Source: Mobula hypostoma
Taxonomy: Eukaryota
Assembly (NCBI RefSeq): GCF_963921235.1
Contig: NC_086107.1
Location: forward strand, 100,070,001-100,134,000
Length of the DNA: 64,000 bases
Reading direction: 5' to 3'
Notes under the pieces: generated by a model
Databases searched by the model: none
What the model saw: the letters and a program-made list of their open reading frames with translations, nothing else
Told to the model about the DNA's origin: nothing
Part shown: one piece after another, positions 1,857-64,000 of the stretch
Layout: each line of letters starts with the position of its first letter
How positions within the stretch are numbered: position 1 is the first letter of the stretch
Position numbers and translations under genes: made by a program

Positions 1857-3660
1857 TCAGAATCAGGTTTAATATAACTGGCATATGTCGTAACATTTGT
1901 TAACTTTATGGCAGCAATACAATGAAATACAGGATAAATAAGTATTAAAAAAACTAGGTTACATTAAGTATATATACGTCTATTAATTAGTTAAGTTAAA
2001 ATAAGCAGCGCAGAATAACAGAAATAAAAATGTAGTGTGGTAGTGTTCATGGGTTCAATCTTCGTTTAGAAATCAGATGGCAGAGGGGAAGAAGCTGTTC
2101 TTCAATCGCTGAGTGTGTGCCTTCGGGCTTCTGTACCTCCTTCCTGATGGTAACAGTGTGAAGAGGGCACGTCGTGGCTGGTGGTGGACGTCTCCTTCCT
2201 AAGGCACCGCTCCTTGGAGATGTCTTGGATACTGCTGAGGCTGGTACTATGATAAAGCTGACTAATTTTACAAGTTTCTGCAACCTATTTAGATCTCGTG
2301 CAGTACCCTCCCCCCCCCGCCCCCATACCAGACAATGATGCAGTCAGTCAGAATGCTCTTCACAGTACATTTGTAGATATTTTCGAGTGTTTTAGTTGAC
2401 AAACCAAATCTCCTCAAACTTTGAATGCAATATAGCCACTGTCTTGCCTTCTTCGTAACTGCATCGATGTGCTGTGAGCAAGTTAGGTCCCCAGAGATAC
2501 TAGTCATAGTCATAGTGATAGTCATACTTTATTGATCCCGGGGGAAATTGGTTTTCGTTACAGTTGCACCATAAATAATAAATAGTAATAGAACCATAAA
2601 TAGTTAAATAGTAATATGTAAATTATGCCAGTAAATTATGAAATAAGTCCAGGACCAGCCTATTGGCTCAGGGTGTCTGACCCTCCAAGGGAGGAGTTGT
2701 AAAGTTTGATGGCCACAGGCAGGAATGACTTCCTATGACGCTCTGTGCTGCATCTCGGTGGAATGAGTCTCTGGCTGAATGTACTCCTGTGCCCAACCAG
2801 TACATTATGTAGTGGATGGGAGACATTGACCAAGATGGCATGCAACTTAGACAGCATCCTCGTTTCAGACACCACCGTCAGAGAGTCCAGTTCCATCCCC
2901 ACAACATCACTGGCCTTACGAATGAGTTTGTTGATTCTGTTGGTGTCTGCTACCCTCAGCCCGCTGCCCCAGCACACAACAGCAAACATGATAGCACTGG
3001 CCACTACAGACTCGTAGAACATCCTCAACATTGTCTGGCAGATGTTACAGGACCTCAGTCTCCTCAGGAAATAGAGACGGCTCTGACCCTTCTTGTAGTC
3101 AGCCTCAGTGTTCTTTGACCAGTCCAGTTTATTGTCAATTCGTATCCCCAGGTATTTGTCCACACTGGCCCCCTGGATGGAAACAGGGGTCACCGGTACC
3201 TTAGCTCTCCTCAGGTCTACCACCAGCTCCTTAGTTTTTTTCACATTAAGCTGCAGATAATTCTGCTCACACCATGTGACAAAGTTTCCTACCATAGCCC
3301 TGTACTTAGCCTCATCTCCCTTGCTGACGCATCCAACTATGGCAGAGTCATCAGAAAACTTCTGAAGATTTCAAGACTCTGTGCAGTAGTTGAAGTCCGA
3401 GGTGTAAATAGTGAAGAGAAAGGGAGACAAGACAGTCCCCTGTGGAGCCCCAGTGCTGCTGATCACTCTGTCGGACACACAGTGTTGCAAGCACATGTAC
3501 TGTGGTCTGCCAGTCAGGTAATCAAGAATCCAGGAACACCCAGGAACTTGAAATTGCTCACCCTCTCCACTTCTGATCCCTCTATGAGGATTGGTTTGTG
3601 TTCCCACATCTTACTCTTCCTGAAGGCCACAATTAGCTCTTTGGTCTTGCTGACGTCAGT
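1857..3660 (-). mobile_element. Rex1/Babar LINE fragment (1857-2500 and 3533-3660) nested in CR1
   Basis: ORF 2289-2525 KKARQWLYCIQSLRRFG; (ATTCTG)n tail on the minus strand near 1857. Confidence 0.75.
2501..3530 (-). mobile_element. Young Rex1-type LINE, 5'-truncated, nested inside another Rex
   Basis: Uninterrupted 211-aa ORF 2660-3295 (LNVKKTKELVVDLRR...GQSRLYFLRRLRS); GAPQGTVLSPFLF RT motif upstream; AATAAA then (TGACTA)n tail at 2501-2532. Confidence 0.85.
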
Positions 3661-7772: not shown

Positions 7773-9835
7773 CTAGCCATACAGCCATTAGACATAGGAG
7801 CAGAATTAGGCCATTTGGACCTTCGAGTCTGCTCTGCCAGTCCATCATGGCTGATTTATTATCCCTCTCAAACCCATTCTCCTGCCTTCTCTCCATAAGC
7901 TTTGATGCCCTATCTAAGAACCTTTCAAGCTCCGCTTTAAATATACCCAATGACTTGGCCTCCACAGTCATCCGTGGTAATGAATTCCTCAGATTTACCA
8001 CGCTCTGGCTAAAGAAATTCCTTCTCTTCTCTGTTCTAGAGGGATGTCCTTCTATTCTGAGGCTATGCCCTCTGGTCCTAGACTCCCTCACTCCAGGAAA
8101 CATTCTCTCCATGTCTACTCTATCTAGGTCTCTCAATATTCAATAGTTTTCGATGACATTTCCCCTCATTTTTCTGAACTCCAGTGAATACAAGCCCAGA
8201 GTCATCAAATGCACGTCAAACATAACCTTTTCACTTCTGGAATCATACTTGTGAACCTCCTCTTAACCTCTGCAATGTCAGCACATCCTTTTAGATAAGC
8301 AGCCCAGAACTGCTCACGGCACTCACAGGTGCAGTCTGACCAATGCCTTATAAAATCTTAGCATTACGTTCTTGTTTTTATGTTCTAGTCCTCTTGAAAA
8401 GAATGCTAACATTGCATTTGCCTTCCTTATCACTGACTCAACCTGCAAAATTCAAAAATCAGAAGAATGGGACTTGGGAGCTTTCGTGCGGGATTAACCT
8501 TTAGGGAATCCCGCACGAAAGCTCCCAAGTCCCATTCTTCTGATTTTTGAATTTTCTCCCCATCTAGAAAGTAGTCTACACGTTTATTCCTTCTACCAAA
8601 GTGTATGGCCATACACTTCCCTACACTATATTCTACCTGCCATCATCCCTTCTACTGTCCCTTTCCAACCAAATTTGGTCAGCTCCTCTCTTGTACCTCT
8701 GTAATTCACTTTACTCCACTGTAATACCGATTTCAGCTTCTCCCTCTCAAACTGCAGGGTGAATTAGAAACATAGAAGAAAACCTACAGCATGATACAGG
8801 CGCTTTGGCCCACAAAGCTGTGCCAAACATGTTCCTCTCTGTATCACTTGGTGCTCAAGTACTTCAGATCTTCTATGCCTCACCTAGCCATCCTTCTTTT
8901 ACATAGAGGTAGAATAGTAATGTTTATGGTTATCAAGAGTGATAGTTCTGAAGAAATTATTCTACTCATTGATCATGTGGCTAGTCAGAAGTTTTTTTCC
9001 CAGGGCTGAAGTGGCTAGCACGAGAGGGCACAGTTTTAAGGTGCTTGGAAGTAGGTGCAGAGGAGATGTCAGGGGTAAGTTTTTTTTACATAGAGTGGTG
9101 AGTGCGTGGAATGGGCTGCCGGCGACGGTGGTAGAGGCGGATACGATAGGGTCTTTTAAGAGACTCCTGGATAGGTACATGGAGCTTAGGAAAATGGAGG
9201 GCTATGGGTAACCCTAGGTAATTTCTAAGGTAAGGACATCTATCATGTCATGATCACTGGCACTTAAGGATTCCTTCACCTTAAACTCCCTAATCAAATC
9301 TGTTTCATTACACACCACGCAATCCAGAATTACCTTTTCCCTAGTGAGCTCAAACACAAGCTTCTGTAAAAATCCATCTTGTAGGGATACTACAAATGGC
9401 CTCTCTTGGAATCTAACACCAGTCTTATTTTCCCAATATGCCTATATATTGAAATCCCCCATTGTAACATTGCCCTTTTTACATGCCTTTTCTAACTCCT
9501 GTTATAATTTGTAGCCCATATGCTAGCTACTGTTTAGAGGTCTGTATAACTCCCATCAGGGTCTTTTTAGCCTTGCGGTTTCGTAACTCTGCCCAAAAGG
9601 TTTCTACATCTTCCTCTTCCTAAGGATTTGATTTCACTTTTTACCAACAGCACCACCCTGCCCTCTCTGCCTACCTCTCCTTTCAATACAATGTGTATAC
9701 TTGGATGTTAAGTTCCCAGCTATGATCTTCTTTCAGCCATGACTCAGTGATGCCCACAACTTTATACTTGCCAATCTCTAACTGTGCTACAATATCTACC
9801 TTATTCCATATACTGTGTGCATTCAAATATAAAAT
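7773..9835 (-). mobile_element. Internally deleted CR1 LINE
   Basis: Minus ORF 7705-8136 DRVDMERMFP...RNFFSQSVVNL; HFGRRNKR at 8430-8612; endonuclease remnants 9250-9830. Confidence 0.85.
8765..9239. mobile_element. Young CR1 3' fragment with internal inversion, nested in older CR1
   Basis: 8765-8836 is the reverse complement of the CR1 tail; 8967-9239 is the upstream part in forward orientation; compare the colinear copy at 58143-58456. Confidence 0.85.
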
Positions 9836-11157: not shown

Positions 11158-12830
11158 CTTTTTCCTAATACTACAGAGACAAGGATGCTGTGCTGGGTAT
11201 ACAAATGTGGTTTAATCATAACTTCTAAAGACAATGTCTGATTTTCTGGTCCTAAGACCCACTGGTACTTTTAATAATTTATGATTTTGTGCTCCTGTTT
11301 TCCTTTGCTTTTCTACCCAATTTATAATCTCATTGCCCTGATGGCCTTTTGATTCTTCTGAAAAATTAAAATGTGCATTTTGTGTAATTATTGTTCCTAT
11401 TCAGTAAAATCTACTGGATTAAATTTGGATTAGGGTTGGTTGCTATTCCTATCAATTTCAAATGCTTGCTACCTTGTTTCAAATTTATTCATGGAATATT
11501 AATGTTGCTGTCAAGGTTCACATTTAATGCGCTGATGTCACTCTTATACTGTAATTTAAAAATAGATTTTTCAAGTGTTCTTTTCCCAACAATGTCACCA
11601 CTACTCCACTTCACCGTAGTGGGGCTTACAGAACGGTCCATTGCCTTTCTAACATGCCCATAACTTAATGCAGTCCATTCCTCATTACTTCTGGACTTCC
11701 CATTGCTCTTTTAAGTTTAAACATACAGATCACAGAGAAGAAGCAATTTGACATTTTCTTTCAATATCCCTTTATACAGTACATCACTTCCATTGCGATT
11801 TTCAAAGCACATTAAAAAAATTTAGCTGCAGTAAATCACTTCAGTTTTCTTGTCTACATCAGCTTATTCAACCAGGAATTTGTGCAGTTGAGAGGGAAGG
11901 AATGCAAGAGGTGAAAGGACACATTACTCTGGCCAGAAGCATTTTGGATGCACTTTGGAATTCACTAAACTATGTGGGAACATACAATCTTTATTAGCTT
12001 TTTAATGCAAACAATCACATAAAAACTCAATATTGCATTCATCTGAATTATGGCAATCCCACCCACATAGTTACATAAACAACATATGAACAGCCTGTAT
12101 AATTACTGTCACAAATCATTTCTTTCATTCCCAGCATTGATGCTCAGATCAGTGAGACCTGGTCCTTTACCTTTCCTCACCTGGACATAGGCGTTTGTGT
12201 AGATGTGTCCTTGATTTATTTACACTGCTTTTAATAAAACATAATCTGGCATCCAATTGTCTGCAATTCAAATGCTCTGGTATATGGCTCATATATATTC
12301 GTGCAAGATGTGAGCTGGGATCCAGTGTACAAATGGGCTGTGCAGACAGAGCTAGAGGGTTGGAGTGAAGTCGGGGCTAGGATCTGGACTGGAGGCCAAG
12401 TGTATGGATATAGTCGGAAGTAGGTTCACAACACCAGATTGTCAGGATCATGGCTAGGTTTGCAGTGAATCCAGTGCTTGTATATTTCCTGCTCACTGGA
12501 AAATTTATTGTACCATGATGTAACATGTTAAAATGTAGTGTATTAACAAAACTATCATCCAGTGGCCCCGGAATTCTGCTAGTCCATCATAACCGAAGTT
12601 CCAAGGGTGCCAGATTATTGAGGTTTTATTGTAACGTGTTCTCTATTATGAGTCACGTCCTCCAGAAATGGAGAGGTGAATGTGCCAACAAAAATATGGA
12701 AGATGAAATAGTCAGGCTAGATGCTGTGGTTGGCCGCTGACTGTTGTAGAATCATGGAGTTATAGTCAGTACTTTCAGACAAAGAAGCAAAATAAGATAG
12801 AAGGCAAAGCCCCAAATTTGAAGTAGTAAC

Positions 12831-13051
12831 ACACTCAAAAAATGCTGGTGAACACAGCAGGCCAGGCAGCATCTCCATGAAGAGGTACAGTCGACGTTTC
12901 GGGCCGGGTCCCTTCATCCTGCCGGAGGGTCCTGGCCCGAAACGTCGACTGTACCTCTTACTGTAGATGCTGCCTGGCCTGCTGCTTTCACCAGCATTTT
13001 TTGTGTGTGTTGCTTGAATTTCCAGCATCTGCAGATTGCCTCGTGTCTGCG
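12831..13051. mobile_element. Palindromic Penelope-derived mini-element
   Basis: About 85-bp inverted arms centred near 12920; 16-bp flanks AATTTGAAGTAGTAAC (12815-12830) and AATTTAAAGTAGTAAC (13052-13067). Confidence 0.85.
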
Positions 13052-25374: not shown

Positions 25375-25562
25375 AGAGCAGAAATGCTGGAGGAACTCAG
25401 CAGCCAGGCAGCATCAATGGAAAAGAGTAAACAGTTGCCGTTTAGGGCCAAGGCCCTTTATCAGGACGGTTTATTCAATTCCATAGATGCTGCCTGGTCT
25501 GCTGAGTTGCTCTTCCATTTTGTATGGGTTGCTTTGGATTTCTGGCATCTGCAGATTTTCTC
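25375..25562. mobile_element. Fold-back Penelope-derived mini-element
   Basis: AAATGCTGGAGGAACTCAGCAGCCAGGCAGCATC and its inverted copy GATGCTGCCTGGTCTGCTGAGTT; decayed ribozyme motif on the minus strand at 25432-25468. Confidence 0.75.
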
Positions 25563-26675: not shown

Positions 26676-28120
26676 AAGGCAGCAGGTTCTGATGAATTTG
26701 TAATAGAACAAATTATCGCCCTTGAGGATTATGGAATTGAAAAACTTACTGATTTAATCAGTGACATTTATGAGACTGGAATATTACCAGAAGAGATGAA
26801 AAAAATCAGTATTTATCATTCTTCCTGGAGCAATAGAATGTGAATTACATAGGACCATAAGTTTAATGAGTCATATCACCAAGATACTTCTAAGAATTTT
26901 GATGACAAGAGCTAAAAGTAAGGTACAAGCTGAAATAGGTAAAGAACAATGTGGTTTTGTGAAAGACAAAGGTTCAAGAAATGCAATATTGATGTTAAGG
27001 ATACTATCAGAACGAGCTATTCAAATGCAAATGGTTTGTTTGTTTTATTGACTACACAAAAGCATTTGATAAAGTGAAGCACAATAAGTTATTTGAAATA
27101 TTACAGAAAACTCTAGATCTAGATTCGAAAGACCTCCACCTAATCAGAAATCTGTACTGGGAACAAACTGCTGCTGTAAGAATAAATGGAGAAGTGAGTC
27201 AGTTTACGAAAATCAAGAGAGGCATTAGACAAGGGTGTGTTTTCACCCCTGATTTGTTTAATGTGTACAGTGAAACAATATTACAAAAATAAGAGACATC
27301 TTGGGAATCAAAGTTGGCGGTGAAAACATCAATAATTTAAGATATGCAGATGACACTGTGTTAATTGCAAGTACGGAGGAAGAACTACAAAACTTAATTG
27401 ATATAGTTGTTGAAGAAAGTGCAAAGATGGGTCTACCTATCAATCGCAAAAAGACTGAATGTATGGTGATATCCAAAAAGGAGAATCCTATCTGCAGGCT
27501 GAGAATAAGCGGGGAAGACATAAAACAAGTACAGAACTTTTGCTACTTAGGAAGCTGGATGACATCAGATGGCAGGTGCGACATGGACATCAAAAGAAGA
27601 ATAGGGATGGCAAAAGACACCTGTACGATAATGAAGAGTATACTGACCAATAGTAAACTAGGCATGACAACCCGCTCAGAATACTGAAATGTTACGTTTA
27701 TCCAGTTATGTTATATGGCTCAGAATGTTGGACAATATCTAGGAACATGAGGAAACGAATTGAAGCAGCAGAGATGTGGTTTTTGAGGAGGATGCAAAGA
27801 ATATCATGGACGAAACGAATATCTAATGAAGATGTCATGAACAGAGCAAACACAAAAAGAGAACTAATGTATGAGATCATGAAAAGGCAACGTAACTTCA
27901 TTAGACATGTGATTAGGAAAGATGAGTTAGAATGCATGGTAATTATGGGAAAGATTGAAGGGAAAAAAGCAAGAGGAAGACAAAGACAGATGATGATGGA
28001 GACAGCAGCCAGAGAATTGGAAGTGAATACCAGTGAATTGATCCAGTTGACCCGAAACAGGAGTGTGTGGGCTACGCCAGTCAAAGCTCAAACTGGGCAC
28101 GGCACCTGATGATGATGATG
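26676..28120 (+). mobile_element. RTE-clade LINE, 5'-truncated, lightly decayed RT ORF
   Basis: Consecutive ORFs: RTISLMSHITKIL, QCGF...RNAI, KRGIRQGC, NNLRYADDTVLIA, LYGSECW, GKIEGKKARGR; (GAT)n tail; 9-bp TSD ATCTAAGAT at 26667-26675 and 28121-28129. Confidence 0.92.
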
Positions 28121-28819: not shown

Positions 28820-29158
28820 TGGCATCTTCCCCCTTCCTTTTCAGACCTGAAAAAGGGCCTGCTGAGTTCCTCCAGCATTTTGTAGGTGTTGCTTTGGATT
28901 TCCAGCATCTACAGACTTTCTTGTGTTTCTGTTCTGAAGTGGTTAGGGTGTAACAGGAGAAACAGAAATTGGCATAGTATTTCACAATAAGTAAGGGGAA
29001 AACAATATTAGCCATAATTTCAAACAAGAGAAATCTGCAAGTGCTGGAAATCCAAGCAACACATGCAAAATGCTGGAGGAACCCAGCAGGCCAGGCAGCA
29101 TCTATGGAAAAGAATTAACAGTCGACATTTCAGGCCGAGACCCTTCATCAAGACTGGA
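28820..29158. mobile_element. Two Penelope pLTR fragments in opposite orientation (28820-28927 +, 29023-29158 -)
   Basis: GCTGAGTTCCTCCAGCATTTTG versus CAAAATGCTGGAGGAAC; ribozyme-like motif at 29120-29157 with mutated core (UUGAUGA). Confidence 0.75.
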
Positions 29159-34830: not shown

Positions 34831-34929
34831 ATAATTCTGAGTCAGTGGCCAACTCTTCTGTTTTGCTGACATTGAAGGAAAGTTTGTTGTTGGCCACTTC
34901 TTCAAGCACCTCTGCTCCACCCACCAAAA

Positions 34930-35487
34930 GCTGAACCTCCTGGTGCCCAGACATTTTAATTCCAACTCCTATTCCTGTTCTGACATGTCGGTCCTTGGCC
35001 TCCTCTAGGGCCATGATGAGGTCACTCTCAGGGTGGCAGGGGGGAGCAACACCTTATATTCCATCTGGGTAGTCTCCTACCTGATGGCATGAGTATGATT
35101 TCTCCTTCCCTCCCTCTTCTCTTCTTCTATTCTCCACTCAGATCTCTTACTTCTTCTCACCTGCCTATCACCCCCCCCATGTTGCTCCTCCTCCCTCCCT
35201 TTCTCCTATGGCCCAATCTCCTAACAGATTCCTTCTTCTCTATCCCTTTACCTTTCCCACCCACCTGGCTTTGCCTATCACCTTCTAGATATCCTCCTTC
35301 CCTTCGTCTCACCCCCCCCACCTTTTTGTTCTGGCGTCTTCCCCCTTCCTTTCCAGTCCTGGGGGAGGGTCTTGGCTACAAGGTCGACTGCTCGTTCACT
35401 TCCGTGAATGCTGCTTGAACCTGCTGAGTTCCTCCTACCTGTTGTGTATATTGCTTTGGATTTCCAGCACCTGCAGAACTTCTTGTA
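34930..35487 (+). mobile_element. Decayed Penelope element 3' part
   Basis: GIY-YIG C-terminal remnant (GAGCAACACCTTATATTCCATCTGGGTAG), pyrimidine-rich spacer, pLTR. Confidence 0.75.
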
Positions 35488-36204
35488 TTACTAATAAGTC
35501 CAGTTCAGGTTGGCGCACTGCGGGAAGAATAGAATCAAAGAATGTGCAGAAGTTGTTTACAAGAATTTTGATTGGGTTGAAGAATTGTCATTGTGAGGAA
35601 CAACTGAGATTGTGGTGGTTTTATTTTGGACAAAGATGTCTGAGTGAAGATTAAATATTGATGTACAAAATCATGAGAAGCCGAAGCAGAGCTAACAGAA
35701 GATTTGTTTTCTTAATGGAAGGATTGAATACCTAGGAGAGTTGGCTTCAAATGGAAGGCTTATTAGGAAATTGAAAATGAGTGGTAGGAGACAGAAACTC
35801 TCAGCTCATTCAAAGCATATCTGGACCAGCACTTAGCTTGCTCGGGTTGAATAGATCTGGGATAAAATGGAAAATGATCGTAAAGGCTTAGGTTATGCTT
35901 AATGCTTAAAGATTATTGTCCTGAAACACTAACTCTTTCTTTATCTGTGAATGTTTTGTCATTTTTAATTTTTTTTTCTCGCATTTAAGCATCTACAATG
36001 TTTTGCTTTGGGATTGAGTTGTGCAGTGAAATGAATTAGTTCAGATTTTGGCTGTCATTGATATGAAGGCATGTGTGTTATATATTAAAAATATCACCCA
36101 ATTTATTGGTAAGTACAAAAGATTCTGTGGAAATCTTGAACAACATATGGAAAATGCTGGAGGAACTCAGTAAGCTAGGCAAAATCTATGGAGGGGAATA
36201 ATCA

Positions 36205-36962
36205 AAAACAACAGGAATTCTGCAGATGCTGGAAATTCAAGCAACATACATCAAAGTTGCTGGTGAACGCAGCAGGCCAAGCAGCATCTCTAGGAAGAGG
36301 TGCAGTCGACGTTTCAGGCCGAGACCCTTCGTCAGGACTAACTGAAGGAAGAGTGAGTAAGGGATTTGAAAGCTGGAGGGGGAGGGGGAGATGCAAAATG
36401 ATAGGAGAAGACAGGAGGGGGAGGGATAGAGCCGAGAGCTGGACAGCTGATAGGCAAAAGGGGATACGAGAGGATCATGGGACAGGAGGTCCGGGAAGAA
36501 AGACAAGGGGGGGGGTGACCCAGAGGATGGGCAAGAGGTATATTCAGAGGGACAGAGGGAGAAAAAGGAGAGTGAGAGAAAGAATGTGTGCATAAAAATG
36601 AGTAACAGATGGGGTACGAGGGGGAGGTGGGGCCTTAGCGGAAGTTAGAGAAGTCAATGTTCATGCCATCAGGTTGAAGGCTACCCAGACGGAATATAAG
36701 GTGTTGTTCCTCCAACCTGAGTGTGGCTTCATCTTTACAGTAGAGGAGGCCGTGGATAGACATGTCAGAATGGGAATGGGATGTGGAATTAAAATGTGTG
36801 GCCACTGGGAGATCCTGCTTTCTCTGGCGGACAGAGCGTAGATGTTCAGCAAAGCGGTCTCCCAGTCTGCGTCGGGTCTCACCAATATATAAAAGGCCAC
36901 ATCGGGAGCACCGGACGCAGTATATCACCCCAGTCGACTCACAGGTGAAGTGATGCCTCACC
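36205..36962 (-). mobile_element. Young 5'-truncated Penelope-like retroelement (GIY-YIG endonuclease C-terminus plus 3' pLTR)
   Basis: ORF 36635-36960: GVIYCVRCSRCGLLYIGETRRRLGDRFAEH...EQHLIFRLGSLQPDGMN. Identical 16-bp flanks TGGAGGGGAATAATCA at 36189-36204 and 36963-36978; CpGs retained. Confidence 0.9.
36304..36339 (-). ncRNA. Minimal type I hammerhead ribozyme motif in a Penelope-like element
   Basis: Minus strand reads AGUC-CUGACGA-A-GGGU(CUCG)GCCU-GAAA-C-GUC-GACU: stem I AGUC/GACU, conserved CUGANGA and GAAA boxes, stem II, palindromic ACGU stem III, GUC cleavage triplet. Confidence 0.75.
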
Positions 36963-37839
36963 TGGAGGGGAATAATCAGTTGACTCACACCTCTTCTCCT
37001 CACCGCCCATCGCCTCACTCAGGTTTCCCTCCTCCTTCCCTGTCTTCATTGGTCCACTGTCCTCTCCTAATAGAATCCTCCTCCTTCATCCCTTTACCCC
37101 TTTCAGCTATCCCCTGCTATTTTCTTACTTCATCCCACCTCCCCCTCACCTGGTCTCACCTATCACCTGCCAGCTTGTACTTCTCCCACCCCCACCTTCT
37201 TATTTTGACTTCTGCCCCCCCTTCTTTTCTGGTCTTGACGAAGGATCTTAGCCCGAAGCATCCACTCTTTATTCCCCTCCACAGATGCTGCCTAACTTGT
37301 AGAGTTCTTCCACCATTTTGTGTGTGTTACTCAATTTACTAATTCTGCTATCATCTTCTTTTGGCTGTTGCATTGCAAAGCTCTAGAATGCTTTACCCAA
37401 ACCGCTTTTTCTTTCCTTCAAAACATAACAAATCTTTTTATCTATCATCTGCCAATAATGTGGCATGCTGCCCTCTATTAATTGACCTGATACCTTCTGT
37501 TATATAGTTTGGTGCCTACAGTTGGCATCTTGGATTTTTTAAAATTACAGATACATTATGAATGGAAATTGTTCAAATCTGAGTAGCTGCAATATTTGCT
37601 GAGTTTCTAACATGCCATCATCGGAAAGCTTCCACGTCATTGTTATACAGCACAGGAACAGGCCCTTCGGCCCACCACGTCCATGCCGGCATTCAAGTAC
37701 CCATCTCTATCATGCTTATGTATTCCTTCATACCGAATAGAAAAGGTAAGTAGCTGATCTTGTCAAGACAACTCTTATCTCTTTTCCGCATGAAGGTGAT
37801 CCTTATTACGACTAAAGCAAGTCAGAAACTGCCTATAGC

Positions 37840-38400
37840 TTCATTTCGCGCAATCCTTCTCCTGCCGGCCAGCATTGGTTGGGCAAGCTGTCGCTCAAAT
37901 CCTGCGCCAAAAGCACTGCGGCACCGGTCGCTATCCGGGGGCCGCATCTGACGGATGCCAGCGAGCGCGGCGGACGTATTCCATTCGTCAGCAGCGCTGT
38001 CGCTCAAGTGGGCCGTCTTCCTACTGGGCAGCGTCCGGGCTGGCGCGGGACGTTGTCGGCAGGGCGGGGTTGGGCCGCTGAGCTGACGGCTGATGCGCGA
38101 GCTCCAGTGTGTGAGCCTGAGCTAGCGCGAGGCGGGCGGTGCGAGGGACGCCGAGCAGCGGAAGGCTTGAATTTTAGTTTTCTTGAAATAAAAATACACG
38201 ATTCATAAGCAAAATTCGCTGTTTTCACACCGCCTAATCCCACAGGGAGAGAGGGCATTGGAAAATCGCGTGGATCGCGGAGGTAAGAGGTAAAAATTAA
38301 TGTTTAAGTTTTCGGTCAGTTGAGGAGTAGTCGGAAAAGGGAGTGAAACCAGGAAAAGAATCAGACACCGGCTGGGCCGGCGCGCTCGCCACAGGCAACT
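37840..38400 (+). promoter_or_regulatory. myh9: CpG island, probable myh9 promoter
   Basis: Only non-repeat CpG-dense segment in the window. GC box GGGCGGGG 38062-38069; inverted CCAAT (ATTGG) 37874-37878; Inr-like TCCAGT 38103-38108; ETS-like CGGAAGT 38436-38442 and AP-1 TGAGTCA 38465-38471 just downstream; no TATA box. Confidence 0.8.
38106..38282 (+). other. myh9: Probable non-coding exon 1 (5'UTR) of myh9; start approximate
   Basis: Strong donor GAG|GTAAGA at 38282/38283; no ATG between 38106 and 38282; vertebrate MYH9 has a non-coding exon 1 and a long first intron. Implied intron 1 is 38283-55729. Confidence 0.65.
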
Positions 38401-40129
38401 TTCTGACTTGTATTTCATCTAAACGTTTCTAAAAGCGGAAGTTTGAACGACAGGCTTCTTCTATTGAGTCATCACCATATTGAGAATTGCATTTTAAAAT
38501 CTGCCAGCTATTCGATTTTATTTTTTTTAAATTTTGAACTCCTGTGTTAAAGTACCCAGTACCAATATCTTTGGGTTATTAACTTGTGAAAGTCAGATGG
38601 TACGACAGGTAGTATGGAAACTACCTTCAGTGTTAGAGTTCGCAGATATGGGCTTGGCTTCCGTCTCCCCGGCTGCACGAGCTTCCTGTCCTTTTTTTTT
38701 CCTTTTTTTTGAATGATTTCATCCATGTCCAAATTCCCTTTCTTTTGGTATGCTTTTCTAAGACTGCAGTCTTCAAGTTTGATTGCATCCTCGGAATGTG
38801 GAGAGCGGCTCAAATGGCAGTCTGCGTTTACTTAATGTAATAAAAAAACATTTAATATCCTTCGTACTTACAAAGCTGAACTAAAATAGTTTTGGTGTCG
38901 TTTTGATTTGGTACAATCGTTTCAATAGAGATTTTTTTTAAAAGGAGGAATTGAAATATCCTTATTCTGCCATTCGGTCGCTATCTTATGCCCCTCCCCC
39001 ACCCCACTCCTCTGTGCCCTTCCCATCATATATTTTTTTAAAAAGGTGTTCAGAATTCTATGAATGGCATATGAGTCTCTTAACCTTGGGCAATGTTAAA
39101 ATCATGAAATAAGTATTTTCTGTTGCAGTTTATAGTAGAACATCTAAAAGCGAATGGACGACGAAAGTACAACTGATAATTTTATATAATTAGGTAAAGG
39201 ACAGAGTTGCCTTATAAAGATCATACTGAAAGCATCCTAGCGTGCTTATTGAATACGGTTGGTAACTTTGTCTGTTCTTCAATACTAGTTCATTTGTAGT
39301 TTGCCCTCCAAATTGATAGGTGATTTGGTGGCGAAGATCGTGTAAATTGTAAAATCTTTTCATTAGAGTTCTACAGGCAGATTTTTTTTATTCTAACTTG
39401 TTAAAATGGCATGTGAACTGTTTGCTGTGCTTTACCCTCTCAAGATTTTTTTTACTGCATGCAATATAGCCCCACCCAGTTTTAAGTAGAAGATAGTGCA
39501 GTACGACGAAGTGTGTGACTCATGGCGAAGTGCACTGATAACTTGCAAAGCTTTCTGTTAGCTGGCTAGTTATATTTTCTAGAATTTTTAAACGTTACCA
39601 CTTGAAACTCTGGTAACAACTTATCTGTCTGGTGAAGCATGTATTTTTTACAAAAACCAAGGATATTGGAGAGCATGCCTGGTATTATGATTCAGGCACT
39701 GTTAGTACAATAAAGAAACACTAAGAGTCAGTTGCCTCATCCTTTCAGATATTAAAAAAATGAATTAAAGCATTCCAAAATTTGGGTATTTATTCTAATT
39801 TGCATAATTCTCACCACTGTGCTTGTCCTTGCTGAACTACATTGGCACTTGTTTTCAAATTCCACTGTGACTTCATCCCTCCTCATTATTTTGACCTATA
39901 TAACCCTTGGATGCCTTTGGTGTTCTCAATGTCTAACCCCTTGTTTGTATGTTTTGTCACCTTTTGTCACTCCGTTGGTTGTGCCTGGGCTTAGGCTCTG
40001 GAATTCCATTGCTATATCTCAACCATCTTTGTTTTAAGGTTTGTCTGAAGTTCTAATTGTATGCCAAACTTTGATCCTGTGATGCTCTGTATGATATTGT
40101 TAGTGTAAAGTGTCACAAGGGCAATGTCA

Positions 40130-47169: not shown

Positions 47170-50100
47170 TAAGGACAGTGATTACAAACACAAAGGCATA
47201 ATTCAAAGCTCTTTAACTGAATGCATATAGCATTTGTAAAAGGTAGATAAATTGATAGTATAAATAGATACATTCAAATAACTTTAACCAAAGTCATGAT
47301 TGCACAGTAACCAAGGTTAAGTATTTAATATTTCTGGATATTTACAGATAAGTAAAATGGAATAGGAGATGGGCTGGCCCTGATAGTAAAGTGTGGAAGA
47401 GATTAGAGTACAGTCTATTTGGGTAAAACAGCAAGGAACAGAAAATGTTGATGGCAGTTGCATAAATGTCCCCCAAATAGTAAGTGAATCAGTATGTGAG
47501 TAAATTAGTTGTGTGTAATGAGGTTAACACAATAATAATGTAGACTGAGCGAATCAAATTAGTTGTAATATGGCGGATGAAGTTGTGAAATTTAAACGGA
47601 ATTCTAGATCGGTATCCAGAGGAATTGATAAAGAGCCAGGCTATTTTAGATCTGTGTAATATGAAAAGGTTAATTGAGGATCTGTAGCTAAAGGGCCTTT
47701 AGGGAACAATGATCATAATATGACTGGACTTTATACAAAGATTGAAAACGATTTAGTTCATTCTGAGTAAAGCAAACTGAAGGCTTGTCTATAGCAAGTT
47801 GTGATGCATTGAAGGTATGACTGTATGAGCAAAGACTATTGTTCAAATAATTAGCATCTCGTAGATTTAAGAAAATATCAGAACTCAGAAGGTCAATACT
47901 TTAATGATAGGGAAAATAAAAATAGGTTTTGGGAAGTATAAAAGGAAATTTTAAGATCTACTATAGTGATATTAAAACAAAAGATTAGCTAAAGTTAATA
48001 TGGGTCCCTTAAGGAATATGAAAAAAAAAATAACTTGTTGCAGGTGAGGAAGTGGTAGGGAAACCAAATAATTTTTTTTTCTGCTTTCCTGGGAGAAGGT
48101 ACAGAAAGCATCTTGGCAAAATATTGGAGAACTACAAGTGTGGAGCAAATGAGCTCAAGGCAATAAGCTTTTAGAGGGGAAAAAAATGGTATTGAAAGGT
48201 GATTTAAAAAGTGGTATTAAAAGGTAAAAAATCCCCACAGTCTATGTCCAAGAAGTTTTGAAGGAGATGGCAGTGGAAATAATGTGTTGTCATCTTTCAA
48301 ATTTCCATAGATTCCGGAAGATAGCAAGTGTAACTCCACATTTTAAGAAAGGTGGCAGATGACTTTTTTAGGTACCTTCAAATACGAAACTATGTTAACC
48401 AGAGTTGTAGATATACAGACCTATCAACAGTAGAATTAGAATTTTTCAAGATTCTGAATTCGGCTTGCAGTTCAATACCTAGTAAATCAGTTTCTCGCCT
48501 ATATAATGCACTCTCCCATGCTAAAAATGTAAATACACTGTATATTAAAGAGGAGGAGAAAGAAGCGGGGTTGGTACTTTCAGAGGAGGCTTGGGGGAAA
48601 ATCTGCAGCTTTCAATGGTCCTCGACTAATTCTTTGACTTGGAGAGAACATTGTTGGAAAAACATTATAAGATACTTCAAGACCCCATATCAGGAAAAAT
48701 ACAAAGATATAAATGTGATGTGTTGGAGAAGGTGCGGCTCCAAGGAGGCGAATCATTTTCATATTTTCTGGGATTGCCCTAAATTAAGTCTATTTTGGGA
48801 AGGTATTCATAGAACATTAGTTAAGGTACTTAGGTCCCAGATACCTCTGAACTTTGAGACGCTCTATTTGGGGCATGTATTGTTCCTTGAACAGAAGGAA
48901 GATATAAAGTTGCTGCAGGCCCTCTTAGCGGCAAGTAAGAAATCAATCACTAGAAAATGGCTAAATCCAATACCACCTACATTAGAAGATTGGTACGAAA
49001 TTATCTTGGAAATATTTAAAATGGAAAAGTTGACTTACTCCCTGAGAACTCAAAAAGAAACATTTTATCAAATCTGGAATAAATGGATTGAATATATAAC
49101 CCCAATGCGAGCAGACTTTAGATGACTCTCCTAATGATTTATATTGCTCTTCTCATCAACACAGTAATATTGCTAACGTAAACACCCCTAGTCTAAATGT
49201 TTGTTTTTTTTTGGAAAATAGAGAATTAACACAAGTAAAGGGAAAGATTTGGGAAAGGGATAAAAAAAAGAAAAAATTAAGTAAATAAGTACATAGGGAT
49301 TGGATAATTATGTCTGCAGGCAGGAACAAGCATGAACAAATTGGGATATAAACACCTACAATGGTTGGTATATAGGCTTGTATGCAACATTTTGGACCAG
49401 TGGAAATGGTCCAGAAGGGTTGTATGGAAACTATTATTACCATTTTTCTTAACAACTAATTTCATTACTTAGCCTAATAGGTTAGATTTACCACAGTACA
49501 TAATTATCTATTTAAATGTTTATTTTCCTTTTATATCATCTCAATGTGTACTTAAGAATGTATAAATAATCGTAGTTTTATACATATAAAAAAATGGAAA
49601 AGGTTATATGTGTGAAAAAAGTACATGATAATTGTGAATTCCTTATCCAAATAAAAATAAAATTTAAAAAAAAGGTGGCAGAAAGACAACAAGACCAGTT
49701 AGCTTGCTATCAGTAGTAGGGAGACAATGCTAGAATCTGTTATTACTGTTAAAAGGTTTAGATGGAAAATAATAACATTAGGCAGAGTGAACATGGCTTT
49801 ATGAATTGGAAATCACATTTGATAAATTTTTTTGGAGAATTTTTTGAGCTTGCAACTAGTGGAATGGGTAAGGTGAGTCAGTTGTCTTATGAGCGAGTCA
49901 GTTCATAAAGTGCCTTATGAAATTTAAACACTGATGTGTACCCTGCGTTGGTGAATGGTTACTGGACAAAAACAATTGGGTAATTTTTCAGTGGGAAGAC
50001 CAATAGAATATGCCGATAGGTTAGTGCTGAGGGCAATGTATATCATTGATTTGGATGAAGGAATCAAGTTTGCTGATGATACTAAGTAGGTGGTAATGTG

Positions 50101-55749: not shown

Positions 55750-56082
55750 ATGGCTCAACGGGATGCAGACCGGTATCTCTATGTGGACAAAAATATTATC
55801 AATAATCCATTGGCACAAGCTGACTGGGCAGCAAAAAAATTAGTGTGGGTGCCCTCAGAACGCAATGGCTTTGAGGCTGCCAGTCTCAAGGAGGAGATTG
55901 GTGAAGAGGCACTCGTTGAATTGGTGGAGAATGGCAAGAAAGTTAAATTTAACAAGGATGACATCCAGAAGATGAACCCACCCAAATTCTCCAAAGTTGA
56001 AGATATGGCAGAACTGACTTGTCTGAATGAAGCTTCTGTACTCCATAATTTGAAAGAGCGTTACTACTCAGGACTAATCTAT
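55750..56082 (+). CDS. myh9: Non-muscle myosin heavy chain IIA, first coding exon (aa 1-111; N-terminal SH3-like region and start of motor domain). Exon spans 55730-56082 including 20 nt of 5'UTR
   Basis: Translation [36 protein letters not shown]...[38 protein letters not shown] matches the MYH9 N-terminus as recalled (MYH10 and MYH11 begin differently). Polypyrimidine tract plus TGCAG acceptor ends at 55729; ATG in AAAATGG context; phase-0 donor GTAAGC at 56083. Confidence 0.95.
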
Positions 56083-57127
56083 GTAAGCCTTTTCTGTGTC
56101 ATTGTTAATACTTTGTTTTTGCTATTTGTTGTGATTGCCTGAATATTTTCAATCCAAAATACAAAAATCTGCTTTGAATAATCAAAAAAGCGGGAAAATC
56201 TACTGATCCAACAACTGTCAAAGTCGTGTTTACATAAGGGGATGTATATGCATATGATCAAACCTATTCTGGTCACTTGGCATTTAAAGTATGCTTTTCC
56301 CCCTGCAATTTAAATTCTAATTGCTGAAGACATTAGTAACTTCATGCTGATCAACATTACTAGTTTCAGCTAATCAACTTTCTTATAGAATGTAAGATGT
56401 CATTCACTGTCCATAACTTCTCAAGTTGCTGTTTGTAAGGGAACACATCCACACTTTTCATAAGTGCTGACAGTTGAACCCAGTTGAGATTTAACTCTTC
56501 TTAAAAACCTTTTCTAGCAGTTAACTCATTGTATTTTTATAACTCGAATTGTTGAGACAATCCTTCTCTATGTATCTAATGAAAATAAGATAAACACTTG
56601 GGTAGAATCTAATCTTATTAATTTTAAAGAAATTGGTCATGTTCCTTGCTTAGTTTTTCTGATGAGAAAACTGCTAGTATCAGTGACTTTCACACCACAG
56701 ATGGATAATGTAGCTGTTAGTTTCTGTGTCTTTGTTTTCTGCCACAAGAAGGCAGTAATAATAAAAGGTATTTTACATCTGAATGAATTAAAAACTTTGT
56801 ATCTGTAGCCAGTAGTCTCTTTCACCAGTTTTCATTGACCATTTAGTTGTCCACTTAATCTTGAGAATTTAAAACGTGTTTGAAAAATATAAATTCTTGC
56901 AGTTTACAAAGGAGCAGACCTTTCAGCACTTAAATTTGTTCTTACATAGAGTAAAATTGTACTTCATCATTATCCCTACTCCAGCCACCTAATTTAGTTT
57001 TATATCCCTCAGTAATCCTGACTGACAAAAGTCTTTGTTTTTAAAATTGTCAACTAAGCTATCATCATTGCATGGTAGTGAACTCTAAATGTTTGGCACT
57101 GTAGTGGGAAAAATTGATTTGCTGTCC

Positions 57128-58512
57128 AGTAGCACAGCTAGGAGAACCACTGCTTTACAGCTTCAGTGACTTGGGTTTAGTCATGACTTTTGGTCTGTGA
57201 TTGTGACTTTGCAGGTTGCTCTTATTGCCTTGTGGGTTTCCTCTAGGTGCTCTGGTTTCCTCGCATGTTGCAAAGGCTTGTAGGTTGTTGGGTTAATTTG
57301 GCACCAAATAGCACATTGTGTATATGTGAGTGATTGAATCTGGGGAGTTGATGGGAACAGAGAGGAAAGATTAAAATGGGATTGTGTAGGATTAATGTCT
57401 AAGCGGACATTGCTTCGTGGATCCAGAACTGGCTTGCCCGCAGAAGGTAAAGAGTGGCTGTAGATGGGTCATATTCTGCATGGAGGTCGGTCACCAGTGG
57501 TGTGCCTCAGGGACCCCTACTCTTCGTGATTTTTGTAAATGACCTGGATGAAGAAGTGGAGGGATGGGTTAGTAAATTTGCTGATGACACAAAGATTGGA
57601 GGTGTTGTGGATAGTGTGGAGGGCTATCAGAGGTTACAGTGGGACATGGATAGGATGCAAAACTGGGCTGAGAAGTGGCAGATGGAGTTCAACCCAGATA
57701 AGTGTGAGGTGGTTCATTTTGGTAGGTCAAATATGATGGCAGAACATAGTATTAATGGTAAGACTCTTGGCAGTGTGGGGGATCAGAGGGGTCTTGGAGT
57801 CCAAGTCCATAGGACACTCAAAGCTGCTGCGCAGGTTGACTCTGTGGTTATGAAAGCATACGATGCATTGGCCTTCATCAATCGTGGGATTGAGTTTAGG
57901 AGCTGAGAGGTAATATTGCAGCTATATAGGATCCTGGTCAGACCTCACTTGGAGTACTGTGCTCAGTTCTGGTCGCCTCACTACAGGAAGGATGTGGAGA
58001 ACATAGAAAAGGTGCAGAGGAGATTTACAAGGATGTTGCCTGGATTGGGGAGCCTGAATAGGTTGAGTGAACTTGGCCTTTTCTCCTTGGAGTGACGGAG
58101 GATGAGAGGTGATCTGATAGAGTTGTATAAGATGATGAGAGGCATTGATCGTGTGGATAGTCAGAGGCTTTTTCCTAGGGCTGAAATGGCTAGCACGAGA
58201 AGGCATAGTTTTAAGGAGATGTCAGGGGTAAGTTTTTTACATAGGGAGTAGTGAGTGCGTGGAATGGGCTGCGAGTGACAGTGGTGGAGGCGGATACGAT
58301 GGGGTCTTTTAAGAGACTCCTGGACAGGTACATGGAGCTCAGAAAAGTAGAGGGCTATGGGTAACTCTAGGTAATTTCTAAGGTAAGGACATGTTCGGCA
58401 CAGCTTTGTGGGCCAAAGGGCCTGTATTGTGCTGTAGGTTTTCTATGTTTTGTTTCTAATGTGAATGCATGGTGGGCTAAGGGCCTGTTTCTGAACTGTT
58501 TGATTCTATGTA
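57128..58512 (+). mobile_element. V-SINE (57128-57398 and 58463-58512) interrupted by a CR1
   Basis: GTGGGTTTCCTCTAGGTGCTCTGGTTTCCTC V-domain-like motif; CR1-type tail GGGCTAAGGGCCTGTTTCTG resumes after the insertion. Confidence 0.6.
57399..58456 (+). mobile_element. Young 5'-truncated CR1 LINE
   Basis: ORF 57454-57906 SGVPQG...SKFADDTKIGG...FNPDKCEVVHFG; TTCTATGT tail; possible TSD TAATGT at 57393-57398 and 58457-58462. Confidence 0.92.
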
Positions 58513-63394: not shown

Positions 63395-64000
63395 CGGGAT
63401 TTCCCCTCCTCCATTATTGATGCTGCCCTCACCTGTATCTCCTCCATTTCCTGAACATCCGTGCTCACTCCTTCTTCCCGCCTCATTAACAGTGACAAAG
63501 TCCTTGCCTACCACGCCACAAGCCTCTGCATCCAACACATCATCCTCCCAACTCCGTCATTTCCAAAGGAATCCTACCAATTTCTGCAAGGATTGCTCTT
63601 TCTGTGATTCCCTTGTCCATTTGTCCCTCCTGGCACTTGCCCTTGCAAGTGGCTTAAGTGCTACACTTGCCCATTCACCAACTGACTCGCCTCTATTCAG
63701 GGCCCCGAACAGTCTTTACCGGTGAGGCAACACTTCACCTGCGAATCTGCTGGGGTCCTCTATTGTGTCCACATCTACATTGGTGAGACCTGACATAAAT
63801 TGGAGGGCAGTTTCGTTGAGTACCTCCATTCCATCTACCAAAAGTGGAACTTCCCAGTGGCCAAACATTTTAATTCCAGTTCCAACATGTGGGTCTATGT
63901 CTCTTGTGCCAAGATGGGGCCCCCCCTCAGGGTGGAGAAGCAACAACCCTATATTCCTTCTGGATAGCCTCCAACCTGATGGCATAAATATAGATTTCTC
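63395..64000 (+). mobile_element. Decayed Penelope element, GIY-YIG region; runs off the window
   Basis: GTGAGGCAACACTTCACCTGCGAATCTGC...TACATTGGTGAGACC...CTCCAACCTGATGGCAT, homologous to the reverse complement of 36635-36960. Confidence 0.85.

Follow-up and report, generated by a model that had tools for sequence, protein, structure and literature searches.

The window that we analyzed, a stretch of 64,000 nucleotides from the ray Mobula hypostoma, contains a young copy of a Penelope-like retroelement, on the minus strand and upstream of myh9, that carries a minimal hammerhead motif. The best explanation, to which we give a probability of about 0.88, is a recent and neutral retrotransposition that was dead on arrival: the copy lies by the myh9 CpG island by chance, and its hammerhead is unlikely to cut at a meaningful rate. 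We consider the copy to be dead on arrival because it is truncated at its 5' end, lacks a reverse transcriptase (RT), and has no start codon before its nuclease motif. Its inactivity and its neutrality are what we infer from the evidence below.

Structure and origin of the insertion

The insertion and its immediate surroundings have the following parts:

36189..36204: left copy of the TSD, 16 bp; its letters are those of an older Penelope terminal-repeat remnant
36963..36978: right copy of the TSD, 16 bp
36205..36962, minus strand: young 5'-truncated Penelope-like element, 758 bp (end of the endonuclease [EN] gene, 3' UTR, hammerhead, and tail)
36635..36962, minus strand: C-terminal GIY-YIG endonuclease fragment, 109 codons, open to the stop
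36340..36634, minus strand: pyrimidine-rich 3' UTR of the young element, 295 nt
36205..36303, minus strand: tail of the young element 3' of the hammerhead; its 3' end is 103 nt past the predicted cut
36128..36984, minus strand: older Penelope terminal-repeat arm, interrupted by the young element
36985..37340, plus strand: older decayed Penelope 3' end, head to head with the interrupted arm

The initial annotation had described an exact 16-bp TSD, and we found it at 36189-36204 and 36963-36978. The two 16-mers are identical, cannot be extended on either side, and occur nowhere else in the window; exact 16-mer repeats arose in none of 500 shuffles of the 3-kb region. TSDs of variable length are a feature of EN+ Penelope-like elements, and a 16-bp TSD is in keeping with this. 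The TSD's final two or three bases may represent microhomology to sequence of the element itself.

The young element was inserted inside an older Penelope remnant. The older arm runs from 36984 to 36963 and resumes at 36188-36128, and both pieces are collinear with 37261-37319. The two halves overlap in the 16-mer alone, with the 5' part of the arm in the right flank and the 3' part in the left flank. Insertion into or beside older copies is described for Penelope elements in the sections of PMC6765202 that we used. The young copy has the 3' repeat alone and not the two pseudo-LTRs of EN+ Penelope-like elements; a single terminal repeat is usual for truncated copies, according to excerpts of PMC4209133 and bioRxiv 10.1101/2021.04.23.441226.

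The open GIY-YIG frame that had been noted matches the Pfam model PF01541 at 24.6 bits (cut-off, 22.6; E = 3.2e-5). This minus-strand frame (37018-36635) is 127 amino acids long, and the element contributes only its last 109 codons. The translation has CxxC between VIY and YIG and two histidines downstream, as expected for a C-terminal GIY-YIG nuclease of the CCHH type. The first methionine of the 127-residue frame is residue 86, and there is none ahead of the nuclease motif. Since the 758-bp copy also starts inside the nuclease gene, it encodes nothing usable.

Predicted proteins also point to a Penelope-like identity, as originally proposed. The endonuclease fragment is 94% identical (103 of 109 residues) to the M. 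hypostoma predicted protein P0001, which has a YIDD motif, and another relative, P0006, matches RVT_1 below the cut-off. A CxxxxCxxC linker lies upstream of the nuclease in P0001 to P0003 and in P0006, in a region that the 758-bp copy does not retain. In the portions of bioRxiv 10.1101/2021.04.23.441226 that we considered, a Zn-finger-like CX2-5CxxC linker between RT and EN characterizes the Neptune and Nematis clades. Judging from its sequence, the young copy is the 3' end of an EN+ Penelope-like retroelement. The source element was probably of the Zn-finger-linker type (Neptune/Nematis), a clade assignment that comes from the relatives alone and not from an RT tree. An RT upstream of EN in the same ORF is absent from the 758-bp copy, due to the 5' truncation; this counts against an autonomous element, not against descent from one. 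Three of the predicted proteins that contain the element's nuclease are annotated as protein kinase domain 1C (P0003), mucin-2 (P0005), and receptor-transporting protein 3-like (P0008), and these are probably gene models contaminated by the repeat.

The anatomy of the copy and the published TPRT model suggest how it would have formed. The source, a Penelope-like element that was full-length and of the Zn-finger-linker type, would have nicked the older Penelope remnant with a 16-nt stagger. Reverse transcription would have begun about 100 nt downstream of the hammerhead and halted after 758 nt, inside the endonuclease gene, so that the hammerhead would have been carried along as part of the terminal repeat.

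Other parts of the window also contain Penelope sequences. Terminal repeats form head-to-head inverted pairs at 12825-13041 and 25382-25561, joined within or beside the hammerhead, and the pair at 12.9 kb has the same tail subtype as the young element. At the head-to-head junction, the interrupted arm starts within about 3 bases of the point where its own hammerhead is predicted to cut (GTC followed by AACT, minus strand, 36984-36978). The inverted junctions at 12917 and 25470 are not at a hammerhead cut, and the coincidence at 36978-36990 may be due to chance. Older GIY-YIG fragments are found at 34927-35104 and 63721-64000. Among the remaining features, the roughly 120 bases at 8441-8561 form a nearly perfect hairpin. 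It is probably an inverted repeat of the MITE-like kind, and its matches to Rfam miRNA families are far below the gathering scores. The open frames at 2660-3370, 26999-28109, 48334-49125, and 57451-57906 (263 codons or less) look, by eye, like fragments of LINE-type elements.

Abundance of the family and age of the copy

We aligned contigs from four public runs to positions 35600-38600 of the window. The four runs yielded 234,253 (run X1), 120,647, 57,253, and 11,240 matching records, which are not copy numbers. The summed depth in X1 was 3.8-9.8 million over the element and 17-19 in the unique flanks, or 2-6 x 10^5 times as high, and this ratio is not a copy number either. Thus, the family is very abundant. 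Within the 64-kb window, we counted at least 14 Penelope tail remnants, after leaving out 3 of 17 rows as unrelated (21917, 25893, and 38618).

Family copies end at 36205/36206, with 379 loose ends in X1 and 357 in X5, and this end coincides with the edge of the TSD. Several observations support the claim that the insertion is young. In X1, 48,410 of the 234,253 records are at least 99% alike. Run X5 is from a relative that is about 1-2% diverged (5 differences in 581 flank bases and 14 in 952). One of its contigs, X5 record 21, has a single-copy depth of 8.25, and aligns to 36963-37156 with 3 differences in 194 positions, whereas its 37 letters to the left of the TSD do not align. The alignment would have continued if the site were filled, so this break fits an empty site in the relative. 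A contig from another run (X15 record 13), with 80 unaligned letters to the left of 37005, is compatible with an empty site as well and is less sharp. The observed/expected ratio for CpG is 0.47 in the young element, while three older copies have ratios of 0.08-0.27. Nevertheless, the young copy has acquired changes: at 36247, 36280, 36393, 36447, and 36677, at least, it disagrees with no less than three quarters of the X1 family depth.

In a family as enormous as this one, some such copies should come to lie close to promoters by chance. If the density is one intact-core copy per 64 kb, a value that comes from one copy in one window, then about 1.6% of promoters, or about 300 of an assumed 20,000, would have such a copy within 2 kb on this strand. 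Chance is the most likely reason for the placement near myh9.

The hammerhead motif and its predicted activity

The motif is organized as follows (all on the minus strand):

36304..36339: minimal type I hammerhead motif, with the predicted cut at 36308/36307
36339-36336 with 36307-36304: stem I (AGUC/GACU)
36335-36329: core box CUGACGA
36328: extra A
36327-36316: stem II, with a G-U closing pair
36315-36312: box GAAA
36312-36309: palindrome ACGU

From 36339 down to 36304, the minus strand reads as the initial annotation had it. CUGACGA, GAAA, and GUC agree with the consensus for the core (CUGAnGA, GAAA, and UH at the cut), and the motif also has the extra nucleotide that separates position 9 from 10.1, a palindrome at 15.2-16.2, and a short stem I. 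Counting copies with at least 22 of 36 matching bases, there are eight in the window, and this is indeed the only one with both catalytic boxes (CUGAnGA and GAAA). A strict-core scan of the window gave eight rows, of which the other seven show neither stem I nor the family context.

The motif had been called intact, and this holds for the two core boxes but not for stem II, where the conserved G10.1-C11.1 pair is G-U. The G-U closing pair, which had been pointed out, has a pair probability of 0.94 when the 36-mer is folded in isolation. We also considered an A-U register for stem II and rejected it (probability of 0.02 in the isolated 36-mer, versus 0.94 for G-U). Position 11.1 is C in five of the seven other copies in the window, or in four of six if the inverted pair at 12.9 kb, which accounts for two of the five, is counted once. 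As this C is part of a CpG, the G10.1-U11.1 pair probably arose by deamination. Among 40 of the 156 differences between family contigs and the element, position 36316 does not occur. Predicted proteins that translate this stretch gave no reading of the family's base at 11.1, since none of six candidates scored.

A search with hammerhead models had been suggested as a check, and it did not recover the motif: no hammerhead was among the nine Rfam matches with E up to 1. We take this to mean that a stem III is required by these models. Scans with hammerhead patterns gave no matches in metagenome contigs, prokaryote genomes, or viral contigs.

The initial annotation had proposed that divergent transcription from the island could give an RNA that is cut in this motif, and our analysis does not support this. 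Cleavage of the motif at 36308/36307 at a meaningful rate seems unlikely here, because it is a lone minimal motif, has no intact partner in cis, has G-U in place of the conserved pair, and is predicted to have its core buried in a hairpin. In the parts of PMC4209133 that bear on this, single minimal hammerheads (min-HHRs) showed no detectable cleavage, dimers and trimers cut at a low level, and the G10.1-C11.1 pair is highly conserved. Portions of PMC11167929 report that the hammerhead of an anole element failed to cut when the element's protein was absent, and that RNA-seq ends were not found at the cut site. Within the 64-kb window, there is no intact partner motif on the same strand; the next one, at 29155, is 7.2 kb away and has mutations in C3 and in the palindrome.

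Fold predictions suggest that the stem II hairpin is less stable with U11.1 (-2.3 kcal/mol, down from -3.9); our search of the literature did not find a measured cleavage rate for G10.1-U11.1. With 20 or more native flanking bases, the predicted pair probabilities of stems I and II are 0.004 or less. In the fold model, they collapse because an upstream pyrimidine tract (minus strand, 36340-36355, the last ~15 bases of the UTR) pairs with the core, taking up the CUGA box together with stem II's 5' strand. This upstream hairpin would cost 8.5 kcal/mol, and 8 of 200 shuffled flanks reached or exceeded this value. Similar pairing was predicted for one of the three older copies that we folded, and not clearly for the other two. 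The family may have this upstream trap built in as an off state, or the trap may be accidental. Dimers do not look favorable either: the palindrome duplex is predicted at just -1.7 to -3.1 kcal/mol, and the active dimer fold scores -9.5 versus -28.3 for the best dimer fold. If our main explanation is correct, both core boxes would have survived because the copy is young and not because they were selected.

Position near myh9 and relation to known systems

Two features connect the element to myh9:

37701..38400, plus strand: CpG island, putative promoter of myh9 with a non-coding first exon; GTAAGA at 38283 is donor-like
55750..56085 (end approximate), plus strand: first coding exon of myh9; ATG at 55750

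The element had been placed just upstream of the myh9 promoter. The downstream gene is myh9, as the exon at 55750 matches Myosin-9 best (213.5 bits, versus 190 for Myosin-11 and 187 for Myosin-10). The promoter itself is a reasonable inference from the island, which is the only large one in the window, and from the donor-like site. A scan for an upstream host gene, using a thioredoxin-type motif, identified no convincing exon. The distance of about 0.9 kb that had been given fits the edge of the element, which is 0.7-0.9 kb upstream of the island, but not the cut site, which is 1.4-1.8 kb away (1.4-1.5 kb when measured to the edge of the island, about 1.8 kb when measured to its middle).

The minus strand of the young element is in the right orientation for divergent transcription from the island, and some minus-strand transcription across the element is plausible. 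One run that may be RNA (X9) has no coverage on the island, which carries no information about expression. There is just one minus-strand AATAAA between the island and the motif (37273-37268), and it is supplied by the older plus-strand remnant, which also has a dead hammerhead at 37231-37266. On the minus strand from the island to the motif, we found five U1-like sites (GGTRAG) in 1.5 kb, or 3.3 per kb, versus 0.48 per kb in the window; several of these are in the same remnant. U1 suppresses early polyadenylation. The dense GGTRAG sites, along with the single AATAAA, would favor read-through into the element, and in this respect they weigh against our main explanation. The element's 5' junction (minus strand, 36962) creates a donor-like CAG/GTGAGG, and a spliced antisense transcript could lose the element as an intron.

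We considered whether a divergent transcript from the myh9 island might be cut at a low level, by dimerizing in trans with transcripts of the family or with help from the element's protein, and leave myh9 unaffected. The orientation is correct, the motif keeps both core boxes as well as an intact ACGU palindrome, U1-like sites are enriched along the path, and trans partners could be plentiful; also, passages of PMC11167929 report that protein assists cleavage in the anole element. However, the weak palindrome duplex (-1.7 to -3.1 kcal/mol), the poor score of the active dimer (-9.5 versus -28.3), and the 8.5 kcal/mol cost of the upstream hairpin all argue against it, and the AATAAA at 37273 would be reached before the motif. 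Low-level cutting is improbable, although it is the best of the alternatives. More speculatively, the insertion could have put a cleavable hammerhead on the divergent path of myh9 in this lineage: U1-like sites of the older inverted remnant would let the transcript reach the hammerhead, and cleavage, aided in trans or by protein, would end the antisense RNA and alter the output of myh9. We think that this is very improbable. That the ribozyme has a host function, by terminating or trimming the upstream antisense RNA and so tuning myh9 in this lineage, is even less probable. Only its position and orientation speak for such a function: the flanks are single-copy, and the CpG island beside them is the one large island in the window. 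The insertion is apparently absent from the relative that is 1-2% diverged, so there is no conservation; stem II has already decayed; monomer inactivity, the lack of a cis partner, and the buried core apply here as well; and hundreds of such cases are expected by chance.

Another alternative concerns the insertion itself and has a similarly slim chance of being correct: instead of a TSD, the 16-bp repeat might be a family motif that occurs twice, independently, in a partial tandem. The 16-mer does resemble family sequence just past the hammerhead cut (it has at least 12 bases in common with 37269-37281), and partial tandems are known to be formed by Penelope elements (bioRxiv 10.1101/2021.04.23.441226, in part). 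However, the flanks are the 5' and 3' parts of one old repeat and overlap in the 16-mer only, the family's 3' end is at 36205/36206, and X5 record 21 breaks at 36963. We retain a recent, neutral, and dead-on-arrival retrotransposition as the best explanation for this locus.

The copy has much in common with the min-HHRs described in the consulted parts of PMC4209133. Like them, its motif is of type I, with a 4-bp stem I, no stem III loop, a palindrome at 15.2-16.2, and an extra base between positions 9 and 10.1, and it is solitary and in the terminal repeat of a truncated element. According to the same parts, min-HHRs are known from Xena, Poseidon, and Neptune elements of fish, with thousands of solitary copies in coelacanth and in Xenopus, and the hosts that they name do not include a cartilaginous fish. 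The ray motif differs from them by having G10.1-U11.1 instead of the highly conserved G-C, its stem II is 3-4 bp versus 7-8 in the Schistosoma families, and the ray family seems to be far more abundant. As compared to the EN+ elements of the Neptune and Nematis clades, in the relevant portions of bioRxiv 10.1101/2021.04.23.441226, the RT and the linker have been lost here.

In PAc (Poseidon from Anolis carolinensis), the hammerhead is also near the 3' end, as described in portions of PMC11167929. [quoted passage not shown] PAc was studied biochemically, whereas the ray element is known here from sequence. A non-LTR retrozyme is defined by tandem units that hold two or more complete hammerheads (bioRxiv 10.64898/2026.07.22.740005, in the part we drew on); the ray element has a single motif, with no second complete hammerhead or tandem unit. 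By its sequence, the locus is an ordinary truncated copy of an EN+ Penelope-like element with a minimal hammerhead motif and is not a retrozyme. The literature that we searched, which excludes most subscription journals, held nothing on this locus or on this Penelope family in rays.

As it stands, the locus carries little weight, as it is one young copy among very many. It could serve as a test case: its flanks are unique, a host promoter may drive the element, and there is an apparent empty site in a close relative. If both cleavage and an effect on myh9 were true, they would give the Penelope class of hammerheads a host-regulatory role. This would be regulation at the level of a promoter by a Penelope ribozyme in vivo, for which the filled and empty alleles in sister species would be a natural control.
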